Virus record (IMG/VR): IMGVR_UViG_3300037092_000015
Coordinates: 1 to 64,000 of that record
DNA length: 64,000 nucleotides
Direction: 5' to 3' (one strand)
DNA from: a virus
Position numbers and translations under genes: made by a program. Shown here in pieces: positions 53,513 to 63,948 of the stretch; within the stretch, counting starts at the first letter, position 1; each line of letters begins with the position of its first letter. The notes under the pieces are model-generated. The model made no database searches. It was not told where the DNA came from and saw only the letters and a program-made list of their open reading frames with translations.

Positions 53513-53767
53513 TTAAGTTTGCTTGCTGCCGCTGTTCGCTGCCGCCTCTAACGCCCTGTCGTATTCTGCCTCGTCAAACTCTATCCTGCCGTTGAACCTG
53601 TGCACCGGCCCGATACCTACCGCCGCCCGCCACTCATCATGCAACCGCTCACACCGTAGCCGCCTCTGCGTCTTGCTGTTCGGGTTCGGCAAGCTGCACA
53701 GCAACTGCCGAGCTGCCGCGTGTTTGAGGTTCGCTACCTTGCACTCGCGTCTCTGCTTCGGAGTCAT
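53513..53767 (-). CDS. Hypothetical protein
   Basis: ATGA-coupled to TerL. Confidence 0.55.
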   Translation of the reverse strand: MTPKQRRECKVANLKHAAARQLLCSLPNPNSKTQRRLRCERLHDEWRAAVGIGPVHRFNGRIEFDEAEYDRALEAAANSGSKQT

Positions 53768-55155
53768 AGCCTTCCTATCATCCTTTCCTCACCTGGACGT
53801 CCTGCCGACTGGCTCTTCCATGCGCCACTCCCAAACACCGAGGCGGAACTGAATCCGCCAGACACCCCGAGCGCCACTGCCAGATAGCGCAAGGCATCAA
53901 GCGCATGATCGTTCTCCTTCACCGGCTGGTCCTTCGGTTTGTCCGGCGCCCAGACGTAGCTCTCGAACTCGTTTATCAAATTAACGCACGATGGGTCTAC
54001 CGTCAGCCGTGGCCGCCCGTCACCTGCCACCTTGAGCAAGTTCTGTATCTTGTTGATGCCATCAATCACCCTTCCCTTTTCCCCGCGTGCGAACACCTGC
54101 ATGGAGTTCATGTCCGCTATCAGCCCAGCCGCCGCCTCGTCCACCGCTGCGAACTCGTGCCGTCGCCCTTCGGCCTTGAACCACTTGCACGCCTGCCCGA
54201 CTACAACGTTCTGTAGCTGGCCGCGCTCATACCACTCTTGAAACACATGCCAACGACCATCGCTGTCCAAACCTACGTCCAGAATCACAGCCGGGTTCGT
54301 GTAGCCCTCGTCGCACGCTAGCAGCCACCGCTTCATGTCGCCAGGCTGCCGAACCAGCACATGCACCGCTGCGCTGAACCCGTCATACACCGCACCCTCT
54401 GCCGACGCCCACGCGCCCTCGAACAGCCGCTTTCGACGCATTCCAGTCAGGTCGTTCAGCACCGCCATGCGCCGGCTACCGTCCTCTGTCAATATATAGG
54501 TGCATCCATTGCGTATAACGGAACCTTGCGGGTTGCCTTGAGGAAACTCTTTAGCCGCTTGTTCCGGTGTCAGGTTTCGGTAGATAGTAGGGTTGTCGGT
54601 GTGCACTGACGACAGCAACCGAATCTTTCCATCCTTAGCCCGCTTTCGTATCCAGTGCTGACTCCCGCCAGGGTTCGCGTCACCGTAGAGTTGCGGCCAC
54701 TTCACAACCGCCCCGCGACCGCTGCACCGTGTTGCTAAATACTCCCAGTCGTTAAGGGAAAGCTCCTCTGTCTGGCATGTGTAAATAAAATCACGCTCGC
54801 TGCTAAGGATGCGGTCTGGATTGTCCATTCCACCGCACCATATCGTTGACCCGTTCGGGTAGATGAAACGCGACGGGGTTTCCCCTCCGAACGCCTCTAC
54901 TCCGCCGTTGCCATGTGTCACCTTGGCAAACGTCTTTAGCACAGACCCCGCTAGACTAGCCGCAGTCTTGCGCACAATAGCCCCCTGGCAGCCCGGGTAG
55001 GTCATGCACAATATGTGCGCCTTCATACAGCACGGCCACGTCTTGCCAGTGTCCGAAGGACCACAAATAATAACCTCGTGCTCCCTCGACGCCACCAAGT
55101 CGTAAGCGGCCCCGCGTAGTGGCTCCTTCTTTGACTTGACGATGCGCCGCGCCAT
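53764..55155 (-). CDS. terL: Terminase large subunit (PBSX-like)
   Basis: GPSDTGKT, QTEEL, DANPG, DEGYTNP, PVKENDHALDALRY. Confidence 0.93.
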   Translation of the reverse strand: MARRIVKSKKEPLRGAAYDLVASREHEVIICGPSDTGKTWPCCMKAHILCMTYPGCQGAIVRKTAASLAGSVLKTFAKVTHGNGGVEAFGGETPSRFIYPNGSTIWCGGMDNPDRILSSERDFIYTCQTEELSLNDWEYLATRCSGRGAVVKWPQLYGDANPGGSQHWIRKRAKDGKIRLLSSVHTDNPTIYRNLTPEQAAKEFPQGNPQGSVIRNGCTYILTEDGSRRMAVLNDLTGMRRKRLFEGAWASAEGAVYDGFSAAVHVLVRQPGDMKRWLLACDEGYTNPAVILDVGLDSDGRWHVFQEWYERGQLQNVVVGQACKWFKAEGRRHEFAAVDEAAAGLIADMNSMQVFARGEKGRVIDGINKIQNLLKVAGDGRPRLTVDPSCVNLINEFESYVWAPDKPKDQPVKENDHALDALRYLAVALGVSGGFSSASVFGSGAWKSQSAGRPGEERMIGRL

Positions 55156-55739
55156 TACGGAAGGTCCTTCTCCGCCACGCCGCAATCCCACACTGCCGTC
55201 GCCTCAGTGCCATCCGGTGCCTTGACCGACAATGTGCCACCCTCCCGTGGCGGCTCCCGGTATGTCTTTGGGTCATGCGACTTGAGTAAGAATATGGTCA
55301 GGGTGTCGCTAAACTCCCTCACCTTGTCCACGCATACGGGCTTGCCAGCGGCATTCTTCATCCAGATGCGCTTCTCTACCCCGTCTCTTGCCCGTTTAAT
55401 CGCCGCATTTGTTAGCCTGCCGACTGCTAACTTTAAGGCTTGGTCCCATTGCTTAGCGAACAGTTGGCTTTTCTTTCGAGCATTGTAGGCGGTCGGTGGC
55501 GTGATTCCAGCCTCCTCGCACGACGCTGCTACGTTAGGCACGTTAGCTAATGCCGTAAGGAACTTACTTCGCCAATTACCTTTGCCGGCAGCCGTACTTC
55601 GCCGCCTTCCTTTTTTAATTCCTTTAGGCGTAACTTTCGTAAATGCTTCCTTGTCACCCTGCCCCGGCCTTATCGTAGTGCCTACGGGCTTGCCTTTCGC
55701 ATTTAACTTAACCCCATGTTGGCTGCCGTTGCCGTTCAT
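55155..55739 (-). CDS. terS: Terminase small subunit
   Basis: WRSKFLTALANVPNVAASCEEAGI..AYNARK..FAKQWDQA..FSDTLTIFLLK; directly upstream of TerL. Confidence 0.8.
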   Translation of the reverse strand: MNGNGSQHGVKLNAKGKPVGTTIRPGQGDKEAFTKVTPKGIKKGRRRSTAAGKGNWRSKFLTALANVPNVAASCEEAGITPPTAYNARKKSQLFAKQWDQALKLAVGRLTNAAIKRARDGVEKRIWMKNAAGKPVCVDKVREFSDTLTIFLLKSHDPKTYREPPREGGTLSVKAPDGTEATAVWDCGVAEKDLP

Positions 55740-56030
55740 GCGTCGAACACCTTTCCTGCGCTAGCCACGATGCGGCCACGCTTGTCGGTCAGCCTTTTGT
55801 TGTTTGCATTTGTTGTCAGCCCCATATTGCTCCCGTTATCTTTTCCTCCTTACTACCCCAAAACCCCATCGCCCGGTTCCTGGGGCGTGGCCTGCTCGTC
55901 TTGAACTCCTTGGCTATCTGCCGCGTCTGAGCCTCGACGAACACGTCGCCAGACTCCCACCTTATCGGCTCCCCGTTGCGACCGATGTCGGTCTCGCAGC
56001 CTGAAACTTCTAATGTCCTATGCATTGCGC

Positions 56031-56057
56031 TGTTATGTAACTTTGGTTAGGGGTCAT
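56031..56057 (+). other. Left boundary of the cassette array; attI/attG-like simple site
   Basis: ATGTAAC-TTTG-G|TTAGGGGTCAT; GTTAGGGGTCAT (56046-56057) is the exact reverse complement of ATGACCCCTAAC (56624-56635). Confidence 0.55.
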
Positions 56058-56710
56058 AGCAGCACGCCTTGGTTTGCCTCGCGTTCCAGACGGGAGCAGG
56101 CGGTTGCGTAGTGTGTCGGATTCTTCTCGATGCCCACGAAGTTGCGGCGAGTTTTCAGACAGGCCAGCCCTGTGCTTCCGCTGCCCATCCACGGGTCTAG
56201 CACGGTGTCGCCTTCCTTCGTTACGTCGAGGATGATTTGTTGCATCAGTCGCACCGGCTTCTGTGACGGATGCCCTGTCCATTCGTCGCCAGTGTATGAC
56301 GCCGCGACGGTCGAGTTGATCAGGTATTGCCGATAGACTTTGTAGTTCGCCTGACCGTTGCGCTCGTAGATGCGTTCGTATTGGCTTCCGCAGCCTGTCT
56401 TTTTATCCCAGATGTGGATTGCCGTGTAGTCGAGCGGGAAGTCCGCCTTCGCAGACCAGAAGATGAGTTGCCGACATTCTATCAGGCGCAGAGATTCGAG
56501 CAGCCCGTCCTCGTATCCGTAGGCTTCCGCGTGGTAGTCAGGATATGGCGGGTCACAGATTATCACGTCGCACTTCATCGGGAGCATCGTCTGGCAGTCG
56601 CCGAGTATGAGAGTCGCCACGACATGACCCCTAACAAATCGCTTCAGCGAACCGCCGTTGGGCGTCGCAGGCGAGTTCGGGAGCGTTAGCTCGGCGGTCG
56701 CTGAGCTCAT
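56054..56710 (-). CDS. DNA N6/N4 methyltransferase (cassette 1)
   Basis: DPPY, HPSQKP, DPWMGSGST; ATG lies inside attC1. Confidence 0.88.
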   Translation of the reverse strand: MSSATAELTLPNSPATPNGGSLKRFVRGHVVATLILGDCQTMLPMKCDVIICDPPYPDYHAEAYGYEDGLLESLRLIECRQLIFWSAKADFPLDYTAIHIWDKKTGCGSQYERIYERNGQANYKVYRQYLINSTVAASYTGDEWTGHPSQKPVRLMQQIILDVTKEGDTVLDPWMGSGSTGLACLKTRRNFVGIEKNPTHYATACSRLEREANQGVLL

Positions 56711-56719
56711 ACGTTAGAC
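56629..56719 (+). repeat. attC site 1
   Basis: CCCTAAC-AAATC-GCTTCAG...CTGAGC-TCATAC-GTTAGAC. Confidence 0.85.
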
Positions 56720-56867
56720 AGCCGGGCCGCACGTTGGGTTTGCGTTTGGTTTTCGACCAGCGGGCGGCGACCGCAGCGCGGGCTTGCTCGCTGGTGCGGG
56801 CTTTTGCCGCGCCAGTCCCAGCAGACCCTCCGAGTTTTCCGAGCGCGACCGCGGCGGGATTTTTCAT
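56631..56867 (-). CDS. Small basic protein (cassette 2)
   Basis: MKNPAAVALGKLGG..ARAAVAARW. Confidence 0.7.
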   Translation of the reverse strand: MKNPAAVALGKLGGSAGTGAAKARTSEQARAAVAARWSKTKRKPNVRPGCLTYELSDRRANAPELACDAQRRFAEAIC

Positions 56868-57133
56868 TGAACTAAACATTTTGCCGCGCCGAGCGCGTCT
56901 GCCGTGATTCCAATCCGAAGCATATCTTCCGCCGCCCTGCGGGATTTTGGCCCGTAGTAATTTTCCCCCAGGAAGCTGCCAGCCTTGCAGTCAATCCATT
57001 CGATTTGGTCGGGCGCGATTTGCACCCCATCGCGGTCGCAGATTTGTTCGCCTCGAATTTCGACACCCTCACTCACAACCAACATTTTCGTTACCGGATC
57101 AATCCGGTTTTTTATTCTGGCACAGGTATTCAT
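56864..57133 (-). CDS. Hypothetical protein (cassette 2)
   Basis: ATGA-coupled to the next gene. Confidence 0.6.
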   Translation of the reverse strand: MNTCARIKNRIDPVTKMLVVSEGVEIRGEQICDRDGVQIAPDQIEWIDCKAGSFLGENYYGPKSRRAAEDMLRIGITADALGAAKCLVQ

Positions 57134-57172
57134 ATTTTTAAGCAGGGATTAGTTTCCTCTCCCTTTGATTTT

Positions 57173-57496
57173 TTAATAGCGTTCGCCGGGAAGGTCTGGG
57201 GTTGCCCGGAGTTTGGGGCGCGCAAGGAAGGCTTTGTTGCTCGCTTCGCGAGCCGCTTTGCCAGCCTCACGTTGAGCCGCCGCCGCCGATTCTTCTTGCT
57301 GATAGGCGGCCAATTGTGCGGTATGCACACGAGCGCCAACCACTTTACCTTCGGGTGAATATTTGCTTCCGACCAGATGAAACGGAATGGCTTCACCTTT
57401 TGCGGTTTTGAAGCCGCCTTCCGGTTGAAGGATTGCATCTGTCCACTGTCCGCCGCCGGTTTGTCCGGCTGGCACTCTTGGTTCGTCTTCGTTCAT
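57173..57496 (-). CDS. Small protein with an N-terminal EPRVPAGQTGGGQW tag (cassette 2)
   Basis: Tag shared with 57761-58075. Confidence 0.7.
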   Translation of the reverse strand: MNEDEPRVPAGQTGGGQWTDAILQPEGGFKTAKGEAIPFHLVGSKYSPEGKVVGARVHTAQLAAYQQEESAAAAQREAGKAAREASNKAFLARPKLRATPDLPGERY

Positions 57497-57544
57497 TTTT
57501 TCTTTCGTTGGCTTGGCTTACTGGGCCTCGCCCTTTATGCCTGC

Positions 57545-57573
57545 AATATACGCAAGCGATTGCGTATATGCAA
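57545..57573 (-). promoter_or_regulatory. Cassette-internal promoter TTGCAT-17-TATATT with a palindromic operator
   Basis: ATATACGCAA-GCGA-TTGCGTATAT spans the spacer. Confidence 0.7.
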
Positions 57574-57635
57574 ACAAAATCTTCATTTATTTACACACTC
57601 ACAAAACCATTGATTCTATTGACTCAAACCGGCCT

Positions 57636-57735
57636 GCCCAACAAATCGCTGCACGCAATGACCGCCGCATTGGGCGTCATTGGCGAGTTCGGGCATCGTG
57701 GGCGCGGCGTTCATGCGTGAGCTTGGTCGTTGGGC
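57636..57735 (+). repeat. attC site 2
   Basis: GCCCAAC-AAATC-GCTGCAC...GTGAGC-TTGGTC-GTTGGGC. Confidence 0.85.
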
Positions 57736-57760
57736 GCTTAGTCACTCCGCGCCCGATGCG

Positions 57761-58075
57761 TTACGGGTTTTTCGTGTAGTCCTTTTCCCCCGCCTTTTGG
57801 ATATCCTCGAAAAATCCAGGCCGATGCACTCGCGCCACCGGCGAGTTGAACCACGGATTGTTGCGTTGCGCCCAGTCCACGGCCTTCTCCCCAGCGCGCG
57901 GCAGTGCGGCCTGCGCCTCTTTGATGGCTTGCGGAATATGCGTTTGCTCGATGTTTGTCCGCTGAGGCAGGCTTTGGAGTCTGCCGATTTCGGAGCTGAT
58001 GACCGCTCCCGTCTCGGGCATGAATTGCCCGCCTTCCGGCGATCCCGCCGGGACTCTTGGTTGATCTGGATTCAT
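57761..58075 (-). CDS. Small protein with an N-terminal NPDQPRVPAGSPEGGQF tag (cassette 3)
   Basis: CAA-rich leader, tag motif. Confidence 0.72.
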   Translation of the reverse strand: MNPDQPRVPAGSPEGGQFMPETGAVISSEIGRLQSLPQRTNIEQTHIPQAIKEAQAALPRAGEKAVDWAQRNNPWFNSPVARVHRPGFFEDIQKAGEKDYTKNP

Positions 58076-58098
58076 TGTGTGTTTTTGTTGTTCGACGC

Positions 58099-58193
58099 GC
58101 CCAACCAATCACTGGAGCGAATGCAGGCGGGCGCTGCCTGTTCGCAAATTCGGATGTCAGTGGCCGCCTGCATCGCTCAGTTCTGCGTTCGGC
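58099..58193 (+). repeat. attC site 3
   Basis: GCCCAAC-CAATC-ACTGGAG...CTCAGT-TCTGC-GTTCGGC. Confidence 0.85.
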
Positions 58194-58465
58194 ATCTGAA
58201 ATTCCAATTGCCTCTGGACCGGCTTGTCGAACGTTTTCCACGCTGGGTCAGTACAGAAGGGATGCAGGTCCACGAAGGCATTGTAGTAGATCCCCCAGGA
58301 GTGTGTGATGCAGATTCTGAGATTCAGTCGGAAGTTGTATTCTTCCGTAGTCAGGTATCGGTCATCATCGGCCTCCGAATGCCGAACCAGACGCTCCACA
58401 CGAACCGCCGCCAGCCTCTCGGACTCCGGGAGGCTGTTTCGTTTTCGGGCGGCAGTGGTGTTCAT
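58157..58465 (-). CDS. Hypothetical protein (cassette 4)
   Basis: Starts in attC4 and ends in attC3 (PNAELSDAGGH). Confidence 0.65.
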   Translation of the reverse strand: MNTTAARKRNSLPESERLAAVRVERLVRHSEADDDRYLTTEEYNFRLNLRICITHSWGIYYNAFVDLHPFCTDPAWKTFDKPVQRQLEFQMPNAELSDAGGH

Positions 58466-58494
58466 GGCGGCGGTCGGTGAGCTACTTGTTCGGC
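58381..58494 (+). repeat. attC site 4
   Basis: GCCGAAC-CAGAC-GCTCCAC...GTGAGC-TACTT-GTTCGGC. Confidence 0.85.
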
Positions 58495-58799
58495 GCGCGC
58501 AGGCATTCCTCCCACGTCATGCCGCAGACTTTCTTGTAATGCTTTGCCGAGGCCACCAGTTCCCGCGCGGTCTTTCCCGACGCGACGACCTGCTCTCGCG
58601 TGTAGTCGAAGTTCACCGGCTTTCCGTCTTGGTCCTGCCATTGGCCTTCGCTGCGCTCGTTCCAGCCCAGGACCAGGAAGTGGGTTCCGTAGGGAGAAGT
58701 GATGCGCGCCGCGTCGCACTTGAACATGCGGACGAATCGCCGAACCAAGCGCTCCAGACAACCGCCGACGGGCGTCTCTTTTGAAGTCGTAGCGTTCAT
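58482..58799 (-). CDS. Hypothetical protein (cassette 5)
   Basis: Starts in attC5 and ends in attC4 (PNK). Confidence 0.7.
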   Translation of the reverse strand: MNATTSKETPVGGCLERLVRRFVRMFKCDAARITSPYGTHFLVLGWNERSEGQWQDQDGKPVNFDYTREQVVASGKTARELVASAKHYKKVCGMTWEECLRAPNK

Positions 58800-58829
58800 G
58801 TCGGCGGTGTCTGAGCTTGGTCGTTCGGA
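58739..58829 (+). repeat. attC site 5
   Basis: GCCGAAC-CAAGC-GCTCCAG...CTGAGC-TTGGTC-GTTCGGA. Confidence 0.85.
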
Positions 58830-59176
58830 GATGCATTAATGCGCTTGATAATACAGCTTGTGCAGAGCGTTCTCCCTCGTGTGGTCGTTGGCAGACTCCC
58901 CATCCGGCCTGTGTTCTGCGGAAATGCTGCGATGATATTCCTGGCATTGCTCCGCGCTTTGGATAGCTGCTCACGCTTGTTCCCCCCCAGCCTAGGGGCG
59001 ACCAGTGCAGATAGCGCGTCCAGCAGGATTCGCTCTCGCGCTCGGACAGCCGTTCCCAGTCCTGAGACTGATGTTGGTCCGCGGACGATACCATTGCATA
59101 GGTCGGTGATCTGGCTCTCAATCGCAGAACCAAGCGGGTCGAGCGAACTGCCCGATTGCGTCTCAGGTTTATTCAT
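58796..59176 (-). CDS. Hypothetical protein (cassette 6)
   Basis: ATGA couplings inside attC6 and attC5. Confidence 0.6.
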   Translation of the reverse strand: MNKPETQSGSSLDPLGSAIESQITDLCNGIVRGPTSVSGLGTAVRARERILLDALSALVAPRLGGNKREQLSKARSNARNIIAAFPQNTGRMGSLPTTTRGRTLCTSCIIKRINASPNDQAQTPPT

Positions 59177-59215
59177 AGCGTTTTGGCGGGCAGTCGCTCA
59201 CCCGCGGCGTTCGGT
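59124..59215 (+). repeat. attC site 6
   Basis: GCAGAAC-CAAGC-GGGTCGAG...CTCACCC-GCGGC-GTTCGGT. Confidence 0.8.
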
Positions 59216-59472
59216 GGAAGCGGTTGACCGCATTCCTTGCAACAGCTTGGGGCCTTCTGCTTCTCTGCCAGTTCTGCGTCGTGGACCAGCATCGCCGCTG
59301 CCAACCTTCGGCTGGCCATCGTGAAACGGCGCCACAAATATTCTTCGTGCGTTTGCAGGCACGGCCTTGGTCTGTTCGTATGCGCCAGCGCCCATGCATC
59401 CCTCCACCAAACGCACCGAACCAATCGCGGCAGCGAACCGCCGACTGGCGTTGTTGCAATAGGGGTGTTCAT
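59173..59472 (-). CDS. Hypothetical protein (cassette 7)
   Basis: Starts in attC7 and ends in attC6; CKECG. Confidence 0.65.
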   Translation of the reverse strand: MNTPIATTPVGGSLPRLVRCVWWRDAWALAHTNRPRPCLQTHEEYLWRRFTMASRRLAAAMLVHDAELAEKQKAPSCCKECGQPLPPNAAGERLPAKTL

Positions 59473-59508
59473 TGGTGGTTATCGCCGCCGCTCAGCTTGT
59501 CGTTGGGG
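59415..59508 (+). repeat. attC site 7 (degenerate)
   Basis: ACCGAAC-CAATC-GCGGCAG...CTCAGC-TTGTC-GTTGGGG. Confidence 0.7.
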
Positions 59509-59535
59509 CGCTTAGTCACTCCACGCCCAGTTACG

Positions 59536-59811
59536 CTATTGCGCGGTGTTTTCACACGCCGGTAGTGCCGATGTGTCGGCGACTTTCTTGATGTCCCCAA
59601 GCTTGGCTCGTACGTCGTCAATGTGCAGGCATTCCGCCAGGTTGCATCCAGCTTGGTCTGCTACCGGCACGGCTAGGTTGCCGTTGCAGGCGTCGTTTCC
59701 AGGAGTCGCATCGTGGAGTATTCCGACGATGGACTTCACGTAGTATCCGGGCGGCACGATGCGGAGCACGCGGTCCCCGTTCTTTGCTTCTCTTCCGTTT
59801 GCGTAGTGCAT
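59536..59811 (-). CDS. Small SH3-like hypothetical protein (cassette 8)
   Basis: MHYANGREAKNGD..GILHDATPGNDACNG..ECLHIDD. Confidence 0.75.
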   Translation of the reverse strand: MHYANGREAKNGDRVLRIVPPGYYVKSIVGILHDATPGNDACNGNLAVPVADQAGCNLAECLHIDDVRAKLGDIKKVADTSALPACENTAQ

Positions 59812-59837
59812 ACTTATGTTCTGTGTTTACCGTCGCG

Positions 59838-59932
59838 CCCTAACCAATCACTAGAGCGAATGCAGGCGGGCGCTGCCTGTTCGCAAATGGGTTTGTCAGT
59901 GGCCGCCTGCATCGCTCAGTTCTGTGTTCGGT
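59838..59932 (+). repeat. attC site 8 (near-identical to attC3)
   Basis: CCCTAAC-CAATC-ACTAGAG...CTCAGT-TCTGT-GTTCGGT. Confidence 0.85.
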
Positions 59933-60123
59933 GATGTGTTTTCCACGGTCACATACCCAAGGAATGCCATCGTTTTCCCGCAACAGCGAGGCATGGGAGC
60001 ATCTGCCCCGAGATAGGCAGGCACATATTCCTCTCGCCCACACTGTCGGCAGTAGTGCTTGAAGCATCTCACCGAACGAGCCGCGTCAGCCAACGGCGGG
60101 GTTACGCTTTTAGTGTTCTTCAT
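59896..60123 (-). CDS. Small Zn-ribbon protein (cassette 9)
   Basis: CRQCG..PRCCGKTM; ends PNTELSDAGGH in attC8. Confidence 0.7.
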   Translation of the reverse strand: MKNTKSVTPPLADAARSVRCFKHYCRQCGREEYVPAYLGADAPMPRCCGKTMAFLGYVTVENTSPNTELSDAGGH

Positions 60124-60162
60124 ACGTCCTTTGGCCCGCCGTGGCTGCGCTCTGTGTTATGC
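60071..60162 (+). repeat. attC site 9
   Basis: ACCGAAC-GAGCC-GCGTCAG...CTGCGC-TCTGT-GTTATGC. Confidence 0.82.
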
Positions 60163-60246
60163 CCTACCATCGGAAGGTTCCCGTATCGTCGATTTTGCGG
60201 GTGAGCCACCAGACCACGATCATCAGTATTATCAGTTCCATATGGT

Positions 60247-60441
60247 TTATTTATTCCCTCTGAGCAGGCGGTAGGCGCGGATCGCTACAGCGTCCCACAC
60301 GGCTACTGATTCGCTTGGCAGGTCTCTGAATTTACAGAGGGGGCGCCCCCAGATTGATTTTGGCTGGCTCAGCATTTCTTTCCGGCTAGCGTTGTAGAGT
60401 TTGATAGCCAGTGTTCGGGCTTCATCTAGTTTTTGTTTCAT
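60247..60441 (-). CDS. Hypothetical protein (cassette 10)
   Basis: ATGA coupling. Confidence 0.6.
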   Translation of the reverse strand: MKQKLDEARTLAIKLYNASRKEMLSQPKSIWGRPLCKFRDLPSESVAVWDAVAIRAYRLLRGNK

Positions 60442-60671
60442 GGCAGTAGGTCGTTGAGGCGCTTCTGGAGCGCGGTTGCCAGCACGCTAACCTTTGTCTG
60501 TTGCTCTGAGGCTGGCAGGTTTTCGATTTCGTAGCACAGGTTCAGCGCGGCGCTTCTGGCGTCCCCGATTCCCCGGTGCAGTTTGATTTCTTTCGCAGTC
60601 GTAGCCGTGGCCACCTGCGAGAGTTCCAGATACAGGCTGTTGATAGTGTCGAGTTCCATAGGCATAACCAA
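60438..60671 (-). CDS. Hypothetical protein (cassette 10)
   Basis: SLYLELSQVATATTAKE..CYEIENLPASEQQTKVSV. Confidence 0.65.
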   Translation of the reverse strand: MVMPMELDTINSLYLELSQVATATTAKEIKLHRGIGDARSAALNLCYEIENLPASEQQTKVSVLATALQKRLNDLLP

Positions 60672-60720
60672 TCACGCCACCGAACCGGCTCCGCGCCGGT
60701 CGGTGAGTTCCTTGTTATGC
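60662..60720 (+). repeat. attC site 10 (59 bp)
   Basis: GCATAAC-CAATC-ACGCCAC...GTGAGT-TCCTT-GTTATGC. Confidence 0.85.
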
Positions 60721-60950
60721 CTGCACCCCAGGACGTGAGTGATGGTGCCGCCATTCGGGCCGGGGTCGTTGAGGCACTCGGGGCACTGCACGGCCATTTT
60801 GTCCGCGCAGGTTTTTCCCGGCGCATATGTCGCGCAGTTCGAGCATTCACCGAGCAGATACCATCCGCACCAGCACTTTGCTGCCGCTGGCAGGTTGCTC
60901 AGCATGTCCATGTATTCTTGTTGGTCAGAGTTAAACATCGCAGCGCTCAC
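60672..60950 (-). CDS. Cys-rich hypothetical protein (cassette 11)
   Basis: CWCGWY..CSNC..CPEC; ends in attC10. Confidence 0.65.
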   Translation of the reverse strand: MSAAMFNSDQQEYMDMLSNLPAAAKCWCGWYLLGECSNCATYAPGKTCADKMAVQCPECLNDPGPNGGTITHVLGCRHNKELTDRRGAGSVA

Positions 60951-61630
60951 AATTCATCCGGTTCGCAGGCGTTGTCGAAGTGCCGCTTGTCCTTCTCGAC
61001 GCCGATAAATTTACGACCAGTCCGCAGGCAGGCGATTCCCGTGCTGCCGCTGCCCATGTATGGGTCTAGCACCGTTGCCCCGACCGGCACGCCAACTTGT
61101 TCCAGACACCACGCCATCAGCGCGACCGGCTTTTGGTTGCTGTGGATTCGCGGCTCGTCCTTTTCCTTCGCTTGCGCACCGTTCCAATAGCGCGTTTTCA
61201 GCCGCAGAACGCCGTCCTGGTTTGTCCACGCCGTCTCGCCGTCGGCCTGGTCGTTGCTTGGGATGCCTTCGCGCTTGTCCCATATCAGCCACCGTGAGGA
61301 GTTCGGCAGGCGGTTCGCGTAGTGATTCGCGCCCCACAGCACCACAATTGGATAGCCGAGCCACGGGCGCGGGTCGAACGGCTTGTCATCGCCCATGATT
61401 GCCTCGCCATCAGTGCCGAGTTTCACGCCGCCTTTACGCGCTCCGTGGCAGTAGGCGATTCCATACGGCGGGTCGCTGATTAGCGCGTCCGCGTCTATCC
61501 ACGGAAGCTCCAGACAGTCGGCATTGATTAGTCGGCAGTCTCCGATTGTGACCCCTAACAAGTCGCTGCACGCAATGCCCACCGCGTTCACGGTTTGCTT
61601 GCAATCGGGTGCTGTTGGCGCGGTGGTCAT
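60947..61630 (-). CDS. DNA N6/N4 methyltransferase, C-terminus apparently truncated
   Basis: DPPYG, HSNQKP, DPYMGSGST; ends abruptly FDNACEPDEL; ATG in attC11. Confidence 0.85.
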   Translation of the reverse strand: MTTAPTAPDCKQTVNAVGIACSDLLGVTIGDCRLINADCLELPWIDADALISDPPYGIAYCHGARKGGVKLGTDGEAIMGDDKPFDPRPWLGYPIVVLWGANHYANRLPNSSRWLIWDKREGIPSNDQADGETAWTNQDGVLRLKTRYWNGAQAKEKDEPRIHSNQKPVALMAWCLEQVGVPVGATVLDPYMGSGSTGIACLRTGRKFIGVEKDKRHFDNACEPDEL

Positions 61631-61650
61631 GCGTGAGCTAGTCGTTATCC
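61553..61650 (+). repeat. attC site 11
   Basis: CCCTAAC-AAGTC-GCTGCAC...GTGAGC-TAGTC-GTTATCC. Confidence 0.85.
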
Positions 61651-61965
61651 TTCATGCTGTGTAGGTATTCCGTGGTCAGGGTGCTGGTATTCTGGATACT
61701 TGCGGCCCTTGACAGGCTCTCCGCGCAGCGGAGCTCCGCACTGCTCCATACATGCCACTCCAGTTGCTGTGATCTGTCGGATTTCATGCAGCGCCTTGTC
61801 GTCGCCGTGCCCTGTTACCCACGCATGGCGGGCATCGTTGCACAGTTTTTCGATGATGAGCAGCCACTCGGCTACACAGTGTTGATGATCGGGCCACTTC
61901 TGTTCTTGGTAGGCGCGTTCGCCTTCGATTGCATGTCTTACGTCTGCATCTATATGTCGATTCAT
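61645..61965 (-). CDS. MazG-like (all-alpha NTP pyrophosphohydrolase-like) protein, last cassette
   Basis: ERAYQEQKW..EWLLIIE..ALHEIRQITATGVACME. Confidence 0.65.
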   Translation of the reverse strand: MNRHIDADVRHAIEGERAYQEQKWPDHQHCVAEWLLIIEKLCNDARHAWVTGHGDDKALHEIRQITATGVACMEQCGAPLRGEPVKGRKYPEYQHPDHGIPTQHEG

Positions 61966-61966
61966 A

Positions 61967-62057
61967 GGATAACGAGTCGGTTCAGCGACTGCCGGGTTCG
62001 CGTTTGGGTTTCAGTTCGGGAGTCAGCGGCCCGGCATCGCTGACCTCTTTGTTCCGG
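61967..62057 (+). repeat. attC site 12
   Basis: GGATAAC-GAGTC-GGTTCAG...CTGACC-TCTTT-GTTCCGG. Confidence 0.82.
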
Positions 62058-62368
62058 GCTGCCGATCCGGAACCTTTGCATGTGGGGCATTTCCGCCCTG
62101 GCTCAGCTTGTTTGTTCGTCGCGCCGGAATGAGCGCCGCCAGCCTCTTCCTTGGCTGCCGCAAGTTCACCCTGCCTCAGCCGAACGCTAGCCGTGATTGA
62201 CTGCCGCATGGTCCAGCCGTCCTCGTCGCGGCCTCGCGCCTTCCAAAATCGCCGCGCACCGGCCCTCACCGAAGCAGCCATCTGACGCAGCGGCTCACCG
62301 GTCGGATGCTCAAGCACCGTCTCCCAGTCTCCCTGCTGAATCGTTGCTAGATTTAGACCGTCGTTCAT
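61982..62368 (-). CDS. Hypothetical protein reading into attC12
   Basis: CPTCKGSG then ARNKEVSDAG from the attC. Confidence 0.55.
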   Translation of the reverse strand: MNDGLNLATIQQGDWETVLEHPTGEPLRQMAASVRAGARRFWKARGRDEDGWTMRQSITASVRLRQGELAAAKEEAGGAHSGATNKQAEPGRKCPTCKGSGSAARNKEVSDAGPLTPELKPKREPGSR

Positions 62369-62617
62369 CGCGTCACTCCATCCACGCTATTATCCCACTG
62401 TCGTATTGCACCACAGTCACAAGACTCACTTGGCCGCATATCCTACAAACCACCTTTGCCTTACCGCCGCCGGCCCCGATCTTGAAATACCGATCTACCA
62501 CCACAGCGTCATTGTGTCCGCACCGTCTGTTTCTTCTTGGCCAGTAGTAGCTACACAATACGAAGAACGATACAACGCAAGCCGACGGCAGTAACAGTAT
62601 CACCCAGTCAAGAATCG

Positions 62618-62809
62618 TCACTTGGCACCTCGCGATTCCTTTTCCGCCTTGTGCTCGACCGGCTTCCGTATCCCAGCTTTCGGTTCCGTGAACGCCGTGC
62701 ACTGGCTTCCGTGGTTGCTGACCGCCGGCTTGTTAAAGACGCAGCACCAACCCGCAATGCCAGTGTCCAGCGCATCCCAGTAGTAGCAGGTAGCACAGGT
62801 TGCGCTCAT
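62618..62809 (-). CDS. Small Cys-rich protein
   Basis: CATCYYW..GWCC..QCTAF. Confidence 0.6.
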   Translation of the reverse strand: MSATCATCYYWDALDTGIAGWCCVFNKPAVSNHGSQCTAFTEPKAGIRKPVEHKAEKESRGAK

Positions 62810-62897
62810 GCTGGTGTGTTATTTTTCATGCTTACACTTTTATGAAACGCCTAGTCACTACTTGGTTTGGAAACCATGTCATTCCATCCGGCCGGGT

Positions 62898-63149
62898 CTA
62901 GCAAGCCTGCCTATATTTCTCTTCATTTTCTTGCCTCGCTAGTAAAGTAGCTGCGACCACCTGTAATCTTGAAACATCCTGCTCTACCATCATCCGCAGC
63001 GCGTCCTTGGCCGCAGTTCGCGCCTTGCCAGCCCCGCGCCCCGGCAGCCGCGTCACCGCTTGCAGCGCCAGCTTCGCCAGTTCCAAGTGCAACTCCTGAC
63101 GGCGGATACGGTCCTTGCTGGCGCGGGGCGTCTGCATGTCAGTCAACAC
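62898..63149 (-). CDS. Hypothetical protein
   Basis: Operon packing. Confidence 0.5.
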   Translation of the reverse strand: MLTDMQTPRASKDRIRRQELHLELAKLALQAVTRLPGRGAGKARTAAKDALRMMVEQDVSRLQVVAATLLARQENEEKYRQAC

Positions 63150-63948
63150 TCTCGACCAAGTGCTTGAAGAAGCTTCGGTTCAGAACCCGGAACGTCGCCA
63201 AATGGCCTGTGCCTAGCTTCTCGACATATTGTTTGGAAGCCCAGTAGGCCAGATTGTGCACAGCCGTGTCCGGTTTCACCTTGTCAATCAATGCACTGTG
63301 ACCGTTAGCAACCACCGCCTGCATTAACTCGTCGCATGTGAAAGGTTTTTCAAACTTGAGCACCGCCCGCTTCATTGCGGCCCCAAGCGTGCTAGGAGCG
63401 TCCAACAAGTCCTCAGTGCTTCGCACAGCAGCTTGAATCTTTACCGCGTCAGGCTTCGGCGTCCATTTCTGCACGACAGTCACCGCGCCTTCTGCTACAA
63501 GTAGCGGCTTTGTTTTCGACCAGTAACCGTAACCAGCCGACCACAACTTACCGTCCCGCTTCTGCCGATTGGCCCAGCAACTCACTAGGCTCTTGCTGAA
63601 CCCGGAAGCCTTTCGTATGGCCCGCAACTTCATAGGGTCCGGCATAGATTTGACTATGCCCCACAGAACGCCGTCCGTACTACCGGGCGCTGGCACTGGC
63701 TTCCTGTTGCCGTTTCCGCCGTTCCTTGAAGCAGGCTTTGACAACCGCGCACCGTGCACGGTTGAAGTTCTTTTAGGCGCAACCGGCATGGTTGGCTGGT
63801 CTGGCATATTGCATCCTGACTCCCCTTCCCGGAACGCCTCCAGTTCCTTGATTAGTGCCGTGAACCGTTCAACCCTCGCCCGTAGCGCCGCGATGGTGTT
63901 GTTAATTGCCGTCATCATGTCTTGTGCCCTTTCGGATTGGTTGGCCAT
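63139..63948 (-). CDS. Putative DNA-binding protein (two winged-helix-like segments)
   Basis: N-terminal coiled coil; LRAIRKASGFSKSLVSCW; FTCDELMQAV..NLAYWASKQYVEK. Confidence 0.55.
   Translation of the reverse strand: MANQSERAQDMMTAINNTIAALRARVERFTALIKELEAFREGESGCNMPDQPTMPVAPKRTSTVHGARLSKPASRNGGNGNRKPVPAPGSTDGVLWGIVKSMPDPMKLRAIRKASGFSKSLVSCWANRQKRDGKLWSAGYGYWSKTKPLLVAEGAVTVVQKWTPKPDAVKIQAAVRSTEDLLDAPSTLGAAMKRAVLKFEKPFTCDELMQAVVANGHSALIDKVKPDTAVHNLAYWASKQYVEKLGTGHLATFRVLNRSFFKHLVESVD

Follow-up and report, generated by a model that had tools for sequence, protein, structure and literature searches.

The window analysed here is 64,000 nucleotides long (bases 1–64000 of the linear, 75,477-bp virus record IMGVR_UViG_3300037092_000015 of IMG/VR; CheckV completeness 81%). 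It contains an array of twelve gene cassettes with co-oriented attC sites (56047–62051, ∼6 kb) beside the terminase genes of a phage. We conclude that this is probably a genuine integron-type array, each unit of which was inserted or rearranged by recombination of the integron-integrase type at the crossover between G and TT (hereafter G/TT) of the attC core. The record is a peat-soil phage, nearly all the public runs that contain the stretch being peat metagenomes, and its host is probably a member of the Verrucomicrobiota. Complementarity between cassette ends is a known hallmark of integron cassettes. By itself, the end matching described below is therefore ordinary; the novelty lies in the place and build of the array.

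Cassette ends and attC sites

A first-pass annotation, made from the sequence alone, had proposed that the bases following each crossover G are the reverse complement of the inverse core (R'') of the next attC: eight perfect pairs, near pairs for cassettes 6 (8/10) and 8 (9/10), a loose match for cassette 2 and one failure, cassette 11. We compared the sequence that begins at each crossover G with the reverse-complemented sequence running up to the AAC of the following attC; every listed pair was present and the whole tally was reproduced. The exact runs for cassettes 1 to 12 are 12, 3, 9, 9, 8, 4, 8, 3, 9, 8, 4 and 8, and a clear match bounds a unit at G/TT in 10 of the 12 cassettes. The summed run between cassette start and own R'' is 85, versus 57 between R'' and R' of the same attC. 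Shuffled pairings, named in the annotation as the case that would speak against it, do not match equally well: none of 100,000 reached 85 (mean 48.6, standard deviation (sd) 6.2, maximum 80), and identity at positions 4–10 is 63/84 versus 36.5 (sd 4.6) after shuffling. The circularization at G/TT suggested there gave the same picture. When the attC bottom strands were joined to their own cassette starts, the folds summed to −322.0 kcal/mol versus −274.7 kcal/mol for the linear form, the circular form thus being the more stable, and with shuffled partners to −273.0 kcal/mol (sd 8.5), with 0 of 20,000 as low as −322.0.

The end signature extends to the whole attC family. Searches with a pattern taken from the window sites returned 77 IMG/VR stretches and, among species-representative genomes, at least 120, the latter mostly of Verrucomicrobiota (Limisphaerales including a palsa metagenome-assembled genome (MAG), Opitutaceae, Chthoniobacterales, Pedosphaera) with some Planctomycetota and Nitrospirota. 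The 188 viral cassettes match at 5.35 of 7 positions versus 2.96 for random pairs, and the 209 bacterial cassettes at 4.90 of 7 versus 3.24. The remark that many cores read GTTCGG was correct: this core occupies 5 of the 12 R' boxes of the window, and position 4 is C in 35% of the viral and 25% of the bacterial R' boxes of the family.

The twelve repeats are 59–114 nucleotides (nt) long and are spread over 56629–62057:

56629–56719, plus strand as top: attC1, 14 of 14 geometry pairs
57636–57735, plus strand as top: attC2, 13 of 14 pairs
58099–58193, plus strand as top: attC3, 14 of 14 pairs
58381–58494: attC4, a 16/20/24 variant with three extrahelical bases
58739–58829, plus strand as top: attC5, 14 of 14 pairs
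59124–59215, plus strand as top: attC6, 14 of 14 pairs
59415–59508: attC7, degenerate, with an aberrant 3' arm; missed by the geometry scanner
59838–59932: attC8, closely like attC3
60071–60162, plus strand as top: attC9, 14 of 14 pairs
60662–60720: attC10, a short site
61553–61650: attC11
61967–62057, plus strand as top: attC12, 14 of 14 pairs; distal end of the array

All twelve sites end in an inverse core (R'') and a core (R') with invariant AAC and GTT. Apart from these and a few further bases the aligned sites vary (mean column identity 52%), and in several of them the bases beside AAC and GTT depart from the RYYYAAC/GTTRRRY consensus (GTTCGG, GTTATG, GTTCCGG), and the same is true of bacterial arrays of the family. 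The structure covaries: compensatory changes were found in 7 of the 9 consensus L-box pairs, the consensus computed with MAFFT and RNAalifold recovering the L box only. Folded as single-stranded DNA, the minus strand shows paired R boxes, an unpaired spacer and an L stem whose 3' arm bulges at two bases. According to Nivina et al. 2016 (PMC5027507), the extrahelical bases lie at position 16 and at 23 or 24, with a 6-bp stem between them; in the top strand they are on the same arm as AAC, in the bottom strand on the opposite one. A strict scan for this geometry (3 bp, bulge, 6 bp, bulge, 5 bp), which replaced an earlier palindrome finder that was too strict, recovered 10 of the 12 sites at 13 or more of 14 pairs, every one with the plus strand as top; at the 13/14 threshold neither the rest of the 75 kb nor shuffled sequence gave any. 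The twelve repeats are canonical attC sites whose recombinogenic bottom strand is the minus strand.

Assembled contigs (not reads) of four other peat runs, X3–X6, were compared with positions 54500–63500 of the window, wherever these contigs gave cover. In an X4 contig 58186 is followed directly by 58488; the 301 missing bases are exactly cassette 4, and only seven letters (GTTCGGC) are shared at the joint. Contigs of X3 and X4 follow the terminase side to 56048 and then continue into the same different sequence, that is, a different first cassette. An X3 contig departs after 58192 (R' of attC3), an X5 contig departs after 60717 (R' of attC10), and an X3 contig meets the backbone at 62037. The breaks at 56048, 58192 and 60717 and the cassette 4 joint fall at R' and not at R'', in agreement with the strand called from the bulges; bulge polarity and these break points are the evidence for orientation. 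In an X5 contig, attC7 has a canonical L' (CGGCGGTCGCTGCGC) after 59475 and an R' (GTTCGGTGG) that matches attC7's own R''.

The reading of the ends as the product of real site-specific integration is thus supported by the attC geometry, the family-wide signature and the whole-cassette variants at G/TT. Mechanistically, the folded attC bottom strand would be recombined at G/TT by an enzyme of the integron-integrase type, and the first bases of a cassette would be the former 3' half of its own R', hence their pairing with its own R''. Two details of the annotation had to be changed. The frequent mismatch between R'' and R' within an attC, read there as a sign that neighbours were swapped, is an automatic result of the crossover position. 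The extent given, 56046–61973, is right on the left, where the crossover G lies at 56046, and wrong on the right, where the array reaches the R' of attC12 at 62051–62057.

Phage setting and integrases

The long open reading frames (ORFs) of the record are almost all on the minus strand, and the GC skew is negative across the whole stretch. The array is set among the following features:

53764–55191, minus strand: large terminase subunit gene, with Pfam Terminase_3C and Terminase_3 matches
55155–55739, minus strand: probable small terminase subunit gene, called from position and sequence, with no Pfam match
56018–56048, plus strand: array-proximal junction, attI-like or a secondary GTT site, GTTATGTAACTTTG followed by GTT, with the crossover G at 56046
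61982–62368, minus strand: backbone gene whose translation enters attC12, the AAC of R' being an Asn codon (...ARNKEVSDAG...)

With respect to transcription, the terminase genes (53764–55739) follow immediately on the array, which lies upstream of terS and terL, and the intervening sequence holds only a 69-aa ORF and no IntI remnant. The whole 75-kb record gave no match to PF00589, TIGR02249, PF00239 or PF01797, that is, to an integron integrase, another tyrosine or serine recombinase or a Y1 transposase, and tblastn with phage IntI against it found no IntI remnant. An Rfam scan of the window at gathering thresholds was likewise without matches. The sequence left of the first crossover, GTAACTTTG followed by GTT, forms no hairpin (z = −0.2). 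It resembles the junctions (TAATCNTT followed by GTT) that adjoin intI in phage integrons; the exact 22-mer of this attI-side junction has 0 matches in metagenome contigs and viral contigs, sets in which near relatives may be missing. The array is a CALIN (an attC cluster without an integrase), with twelve co-oriented sites and no integrase found in the record, and it is not a complete integron with intI and attI beside the sites, having only the attI-like junction at 56046.

Could the array have reached the phage only in the assembly, through the fusion of a bacterial integron fragment with a phage contig? Misjoins are easily made at repeats, and the record was assembled from a metagenome. 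Against this, two runs contain 99% of the sampled words of the stretch, an independent X3 contig of 2404 nt runs from the terminase side through to the array start at 56048, and G+C content and coding strand are unbroken across both array borders. A complete phage, moreover, has the same layout. We find a chimera hardly credible. The complete phage (locus L041 of record G001, with direct terminal repeats and rated 100% complete) shares 45% TerL identity with ours and carries at least 10 attC sites in the same place upstream of terS and terL and in the same orientation. Between its last attC and terS (L041:9380–9430) lies a near-consensus promoter (TTGACA, 17 nt, TATACC). TerL relatives in IMG/VR amount to 41 loci, only 1 of which has an array; the closest of them (62% identity) have short upstream flanks.

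Integrases were found beside arrays of this attC type in other phages. A full-length IntI homologue adjoins the array in 11 fetched IMG/VR stretches. Among them, record G007, clearly a phage, has on a single strand and in this order helicase, 12-site array, IntI, TerL (phrog_15, 1e-176), portal and major capsid protein:

L254:13294–19768 and L255:2356–9556: complete integron of G007, IntI scoring 330 bits against TIGR02249

Among five phage IntI scored against TIGR02249 (cut-off 265 bits), 330 and 310 pass and 264, 260 and 249 fall just under; of five Verrucomicrobial genomes that carry this attC type, four also encode an IntI above the curated cut-off. Eight of ten viral IntI, together with that of one MAG locus, form a clade (support 100/100) separate from bacterial IntI. 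In the IntI-bearing phages, the first crossover lies 35–50 nt from the intI start codon, after TAATCNTT and at GTT. Twenty of the 21 loci with IntI, viral and bacterial taken together, show the regular geometry: the attC top strand is directed away from intI, whose 5' end lies next to the array. Terminase Pfam models gave few matches in the 15 array-bearing IMG/VR records; the phage identity of G007 was confirmed by PHROGs, and for G011 PHROGs gave helicase and primase-helicase matches, with weak matches only for portal and head proteins.

An alternative reading takes the array for a fossil: the phage would have picked up part of a bacterial chromosomal integron once, and the end signature would be inherited and no longer maintained. 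The lack of an integrase, the 87.5% identity of attC1 to an attC in a Pedosphaera MAG, the damaged attC7 and the fused-looking cassette 11 would all fit. However, bacterial arrays of this attC type carry mostly sense cargo (107 cassettes to 29), whereas all 12 cassettes of the window are antisense. In addition, 30 other phage contigs contain homologues of the cassette 8 and 12 genes, none with an attC within the flanks fetched, so that the cargo is of phage type; whole-cassette variants exist among the peat samples, and the phage with 45% TerL identity has an array in the same place and orientation. A fossil is therefore unlikely, though less so than a chimera.

Several observations weigh against an array built by integron-type recombination. 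In the end test cassette 11 does not match, and the match of cassette 2 is weak (run of 3; 4/7 at positions 4–10). The flank match is symmetric, being that of two half-sites around one gene with either strand as top, and therefore cannot alone show orientation or a circular intermediate; of the earlier proposal that the cassettes had existed as circles, the discrete units with exchanged ends stand and the circles do not follow. A clean circle junction was not seen in the assembled contigs of X3–X6. A joint in X6 that returns to a point 558 bases earlier, a distance equal to cassette 10, carries the attC9 spacer and was rejected as a circle or duplication junction, not being a clean G/TT product; a joint in X3 from 58767 to 58466 was rejected too as unclean, with spacer or loop from another attC. 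Two runs break at 57644, just past the R'' of attC2, for which recombination at G/TT offers no explanation. The record, 81% complete, encodes no integrase, and activity on the array is what we infer; a tyrosine recombinase was also not found in the complete phage L041/G001. Finally, the comparison set was chosen with a single, narrow attC pattern. Since this phage encodes no recombinase, recombination of the integron-integrase type would have taken place in trans, and the source of IntI could be the integron of a co-infecting phage or the host chromosome.

Inverted cargo and translation through attC

With a codon model trained on the other genes of the phage, all 12 cassettes read better on the minus strand, which is the attC bottom strand. 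Both methyltransferases found among the cassettes also lie on the bottom strand, so that attC is not downstream of its gene but in front of it, and many ORFs start or end inside the hairpin. The cassettes, all on the minus strand, are as follows:

56047–56713: cassette 1, N6_N4 DNA methyltransferase at ∼56054–56620 (Pfam PF01555, 8e-23); attC1; run of 12/12
56714–57729: cassette 2, three small ORFs and a promoter-like AT-rich stretch; attC2; run of 3
57730–58187: cassette 3, ORF 57761–58075; attC3; run of 9
58188–58488: cassette 4, ORF 58157–58465; attC4; run of 9
58489–58823: cassette 5, ORF 58482–58799; attC5; run of 8
58824–59209: cassette 6, ORF 58796–59176; attC6; near pair, 8/10
59210–59502: cassette 7, ORF 59173–59472; attC7; run of 8
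59503–59926: cassette 8, ORF 59536–59811; attC8; near pair, 9/10
59927–60156: cassette 9, small Cys-rich ORF 59896–60123; attC9; run of 9
60157–60714: cassette 10, two coupled ORFs, 60247–60441 and 60438–60671; attC10; run of 8
60715–61644: cassette 11, ORF 60672–60950 and a second N6_N4 methyltransferase at 60947–61630 (PF01555, 1.6e-17); attC11; run of 4
61645–62057: cassette 12, ORF 61645–61965; attC12; run of 8; distal end

The inversion is general among the viral arrays. Under a GC-matched pooled codon model, for which the bacterial set served as positive control of both strand call and model, viral arrays gave 163 antisense, 13 sense and 11 ambiguous cassettes, and bacterial arrays 107 sense, 29 antisense and 8 ambiguous. 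At the IntI-bearing loci the cargo is 39 antisense to 3 sense in viruses and 17 sense to 2 antisense in bacteria; because the attC top strand points away from intI in 20 of these 21 loci, the strand call is independent of the genes. The Pfam matches of the array at locus L116 (two N6_N4 methyltransferases, Methyltransf_24 and a PAPS reductase) are on the antisense strand only, and a contig binned in a Verrucomicrobia MAG (L181:5145–5786), which is probably phage or prophage, has an antisense attC array with a DNA-modification gene of the Mom family. The window array belongs to a phage-specific integron variant, which has canonical intI/attI/attC geometry, cargo on the attC bottom strand and genes co-directional with the other phage genes. 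An explanation may lie in phage transcription: in a genome transcribed one way, with intI co-directional with all genes and the array upstream of it, attC would point backwards, and therefore only flipped cargo would be expressed.

The reading frames run through the sites. At 7 of the 12 junctions of the window an ORF crosses the crossover, the AAC of R' being read as Asn (for example ...PNAELSDAGGH*, ...APNK* and ...ARNKEVSDAG...). At two junctions the upstream stop overlaps an ATG in the attC loop: the ATG of the cassette 5 ORF overlaps the stop of the cassette 6 ORF in an ATGA at 58796–58799, and the ORFs of cassettes 6 and 7 overlap in the same way at 59173–59176. Such ATGA overlaps occur in 73 of 251 IMG/VR sites, 65 of them with AAC in frame, and in bacterial sites in 14 of 259 bottom strands and 1 of 259 top strands; the open-frame counts need no start codon and so overcount, which makes them rough and fit for contrasts between sets only. 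A conserved outgoing reading frame through R'' was considered and rejected, ATGs lying inside attC in all three frames (61/43/47).

These features raise the alternative that the hairpins are mainly RNA or translation elements of the phage operon, serving as couplers and carriers of start codons, and that the genes were shuffled by ordinary homologous recombination between similar repeats with no integrase involved. The genes do lie on the folding strand, several ORFs start at the ATG of a hairpin loop, ATGA overlaps are present at two junctions of the window and far commoner on viral than on bacterial bottom strands (73/251 vs 14/259), and no recombinase was found in this phage. However, a whole gene lies between the matched ends, which do not form the two arms of a single hairpin; selection acting on an RNA hairpin therefore cannot have produced the match. 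Moreover, the deletion joint of cassette 4 has only 7 common bases, the geometry is exactly that which IntI requires, and related phages carry IntI beside such arrays. We consider this alternative very unlikely, somewhat more so than the fossil; a translational role may exist alongside IntI recombination, not in its place.

As for the genes themselves, a search with Pfam and PHROGs on the tested ORFs of cassettes 2–10 and with Pfam on cassettes 10–12 returned nothing besides the two methyltransferases. Other IMG/VR contigs have 27 loci with homologues of the cassette 8 protein (44–79% identity) and 3 with homologues of the cassette 12 protein; none of these 30 loci has an attC within the fetched flanks, and DNA similarity to the nearest cassette 8 homologue is limited to the gene and an A-rich leader. 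Judging by these homologues, which sit in phage contigs with no attC in the fetched flanks, the cargo consists of ordinary phage accessory genes. The methyltransferases among it point to a putative exchangeable set of counter-restriction genes. Cassette 11 is probably two fused cassettes, because its end pair fails and its two genes are joined by an ATGA overlap (60947–60950) with no attC between them; cassettes 10 and 11 begin identically (GTTATGCC), and the R'' of cassette 11 matches instead the first bases of cassette 1 (run of 11).

Further details were noted in single cassettes. Cassette 2 has an inverted repeat (TATACGCAA-GCGA-TTGCGTATA, 57547–57568) within its AT-rich stretch with minus-strand promoter-like sites (57545–57644); in runs X5 and X6 an island at 57596–57644 has other sequence on either side, like a separate conserved module. 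The proteins of 57173–57496 and 57761–58075 have a common N-terminal motif (EPRVPAGQTGGGQW, QPRVPAGSPEGGQF) and no family match. Cassettes 3 and 8 (57729–58193 and 59502–59932) have similar attC sites and their first ∼30 bases are alike (GTTGGGCGCTTAGTCACTCC...), their genes being unrelated. At the 3' end of cassette 10, the minus strand holds a 25-codon hydrophobic ORF (MELIILMIVVWWLTRK...) at 60165–60241.

Significance and comparison with known systems

The window thus shows a phage with twelve exchangeable cassettes beside its packaging genes, at least two of them encoding DNA methyltransferases, and with genes flipped relative to bacterial cassettes. On a broader scenario our belief is evenly divided. 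Phages of Verrucomicrobiota and related phyla would keep an integron lineage of their own, with a dedicated IntI clade and attC ahead of the gene on the coding strand, bearing a start codon in the loop, the upstream stop and an in-frame Asn at the crossover; the cassettes would be swapped between co-infecting phages and translated by coupling, and the phage of the window would belong to this lineage as a member without an integrase of its own, renewing its bank of counter-restriction genes with IntI borrowed in trans. If IntI does renew phage arrays in trans, integrons serve phages too in the race between defence and counter-defence. Because standard surveys for integrons presuppose cargo in the sense orientation and intI close by, they would miss or misread such arrays. 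The flipped design also bears on how promoterless cassettes are translated, and the array offers material on the origins of cassettes because homologues of cassettes 8 and 12 exist in other phages without attC.

Like canonical integrons, whether class 1 mobile or sedentary chromosomal ones such as that of Vibrio cholerae, the window array has R'', L'', L' and R' boxes, bottom-strand extrahelical bases at 16 and 23/24, a 5–6-nt unpaired spacer, a variable loop, a G/TT crossover and cassette starts complementary to their own R''. Unlike them, it has no intI or Pc promoter in the window and sits in a phage beside the terminase genes; its cargo is all on the bottom strand with attC ahead of the gene, its ORFs cross the crossover with AAC as Asn at 7 of 12 junctions, and GTTCGG cores are frequent.

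Integron fragments and 17 CALINs in phages, both virulent and temperate and with methyltransferase cargo, were described by Qi et al. 2023 (PMC9892861), who showed IntI1 recombination for some phage attC sites. The window resembles these CALINs in being an attC cluster without an integrase and in its DNA methyltransferase cargo. It differs from them in that the cassettes of Qi et al. 2023 (PMC9892861) are described as oriented like bacterial arrays, and those arrays are short whereas the window array has 12 sites; that study contains no report of antisense cargo, a phage IntI clade or start and stop codons inside attC. In the literature searched we found no paper describing antisense cargo or a phage IntI clade.

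The chromosomal integrons of Verrucomicrobiota and Planctomycetota share the attC family (identity up to 87.5%), the regular arrangement of intI and attC and the end signature, but their cargo is mostly sense (107 to 29) and their IntI falls outside the main phage clade. The phage integrons of IMG/VR such as that of G007, unlike the window, encode IntI between the array and the terminase genes. They are like it in having the array upstream of the packaging genes, everything on one strand, antisense cargo and a similar junction before G/TT.

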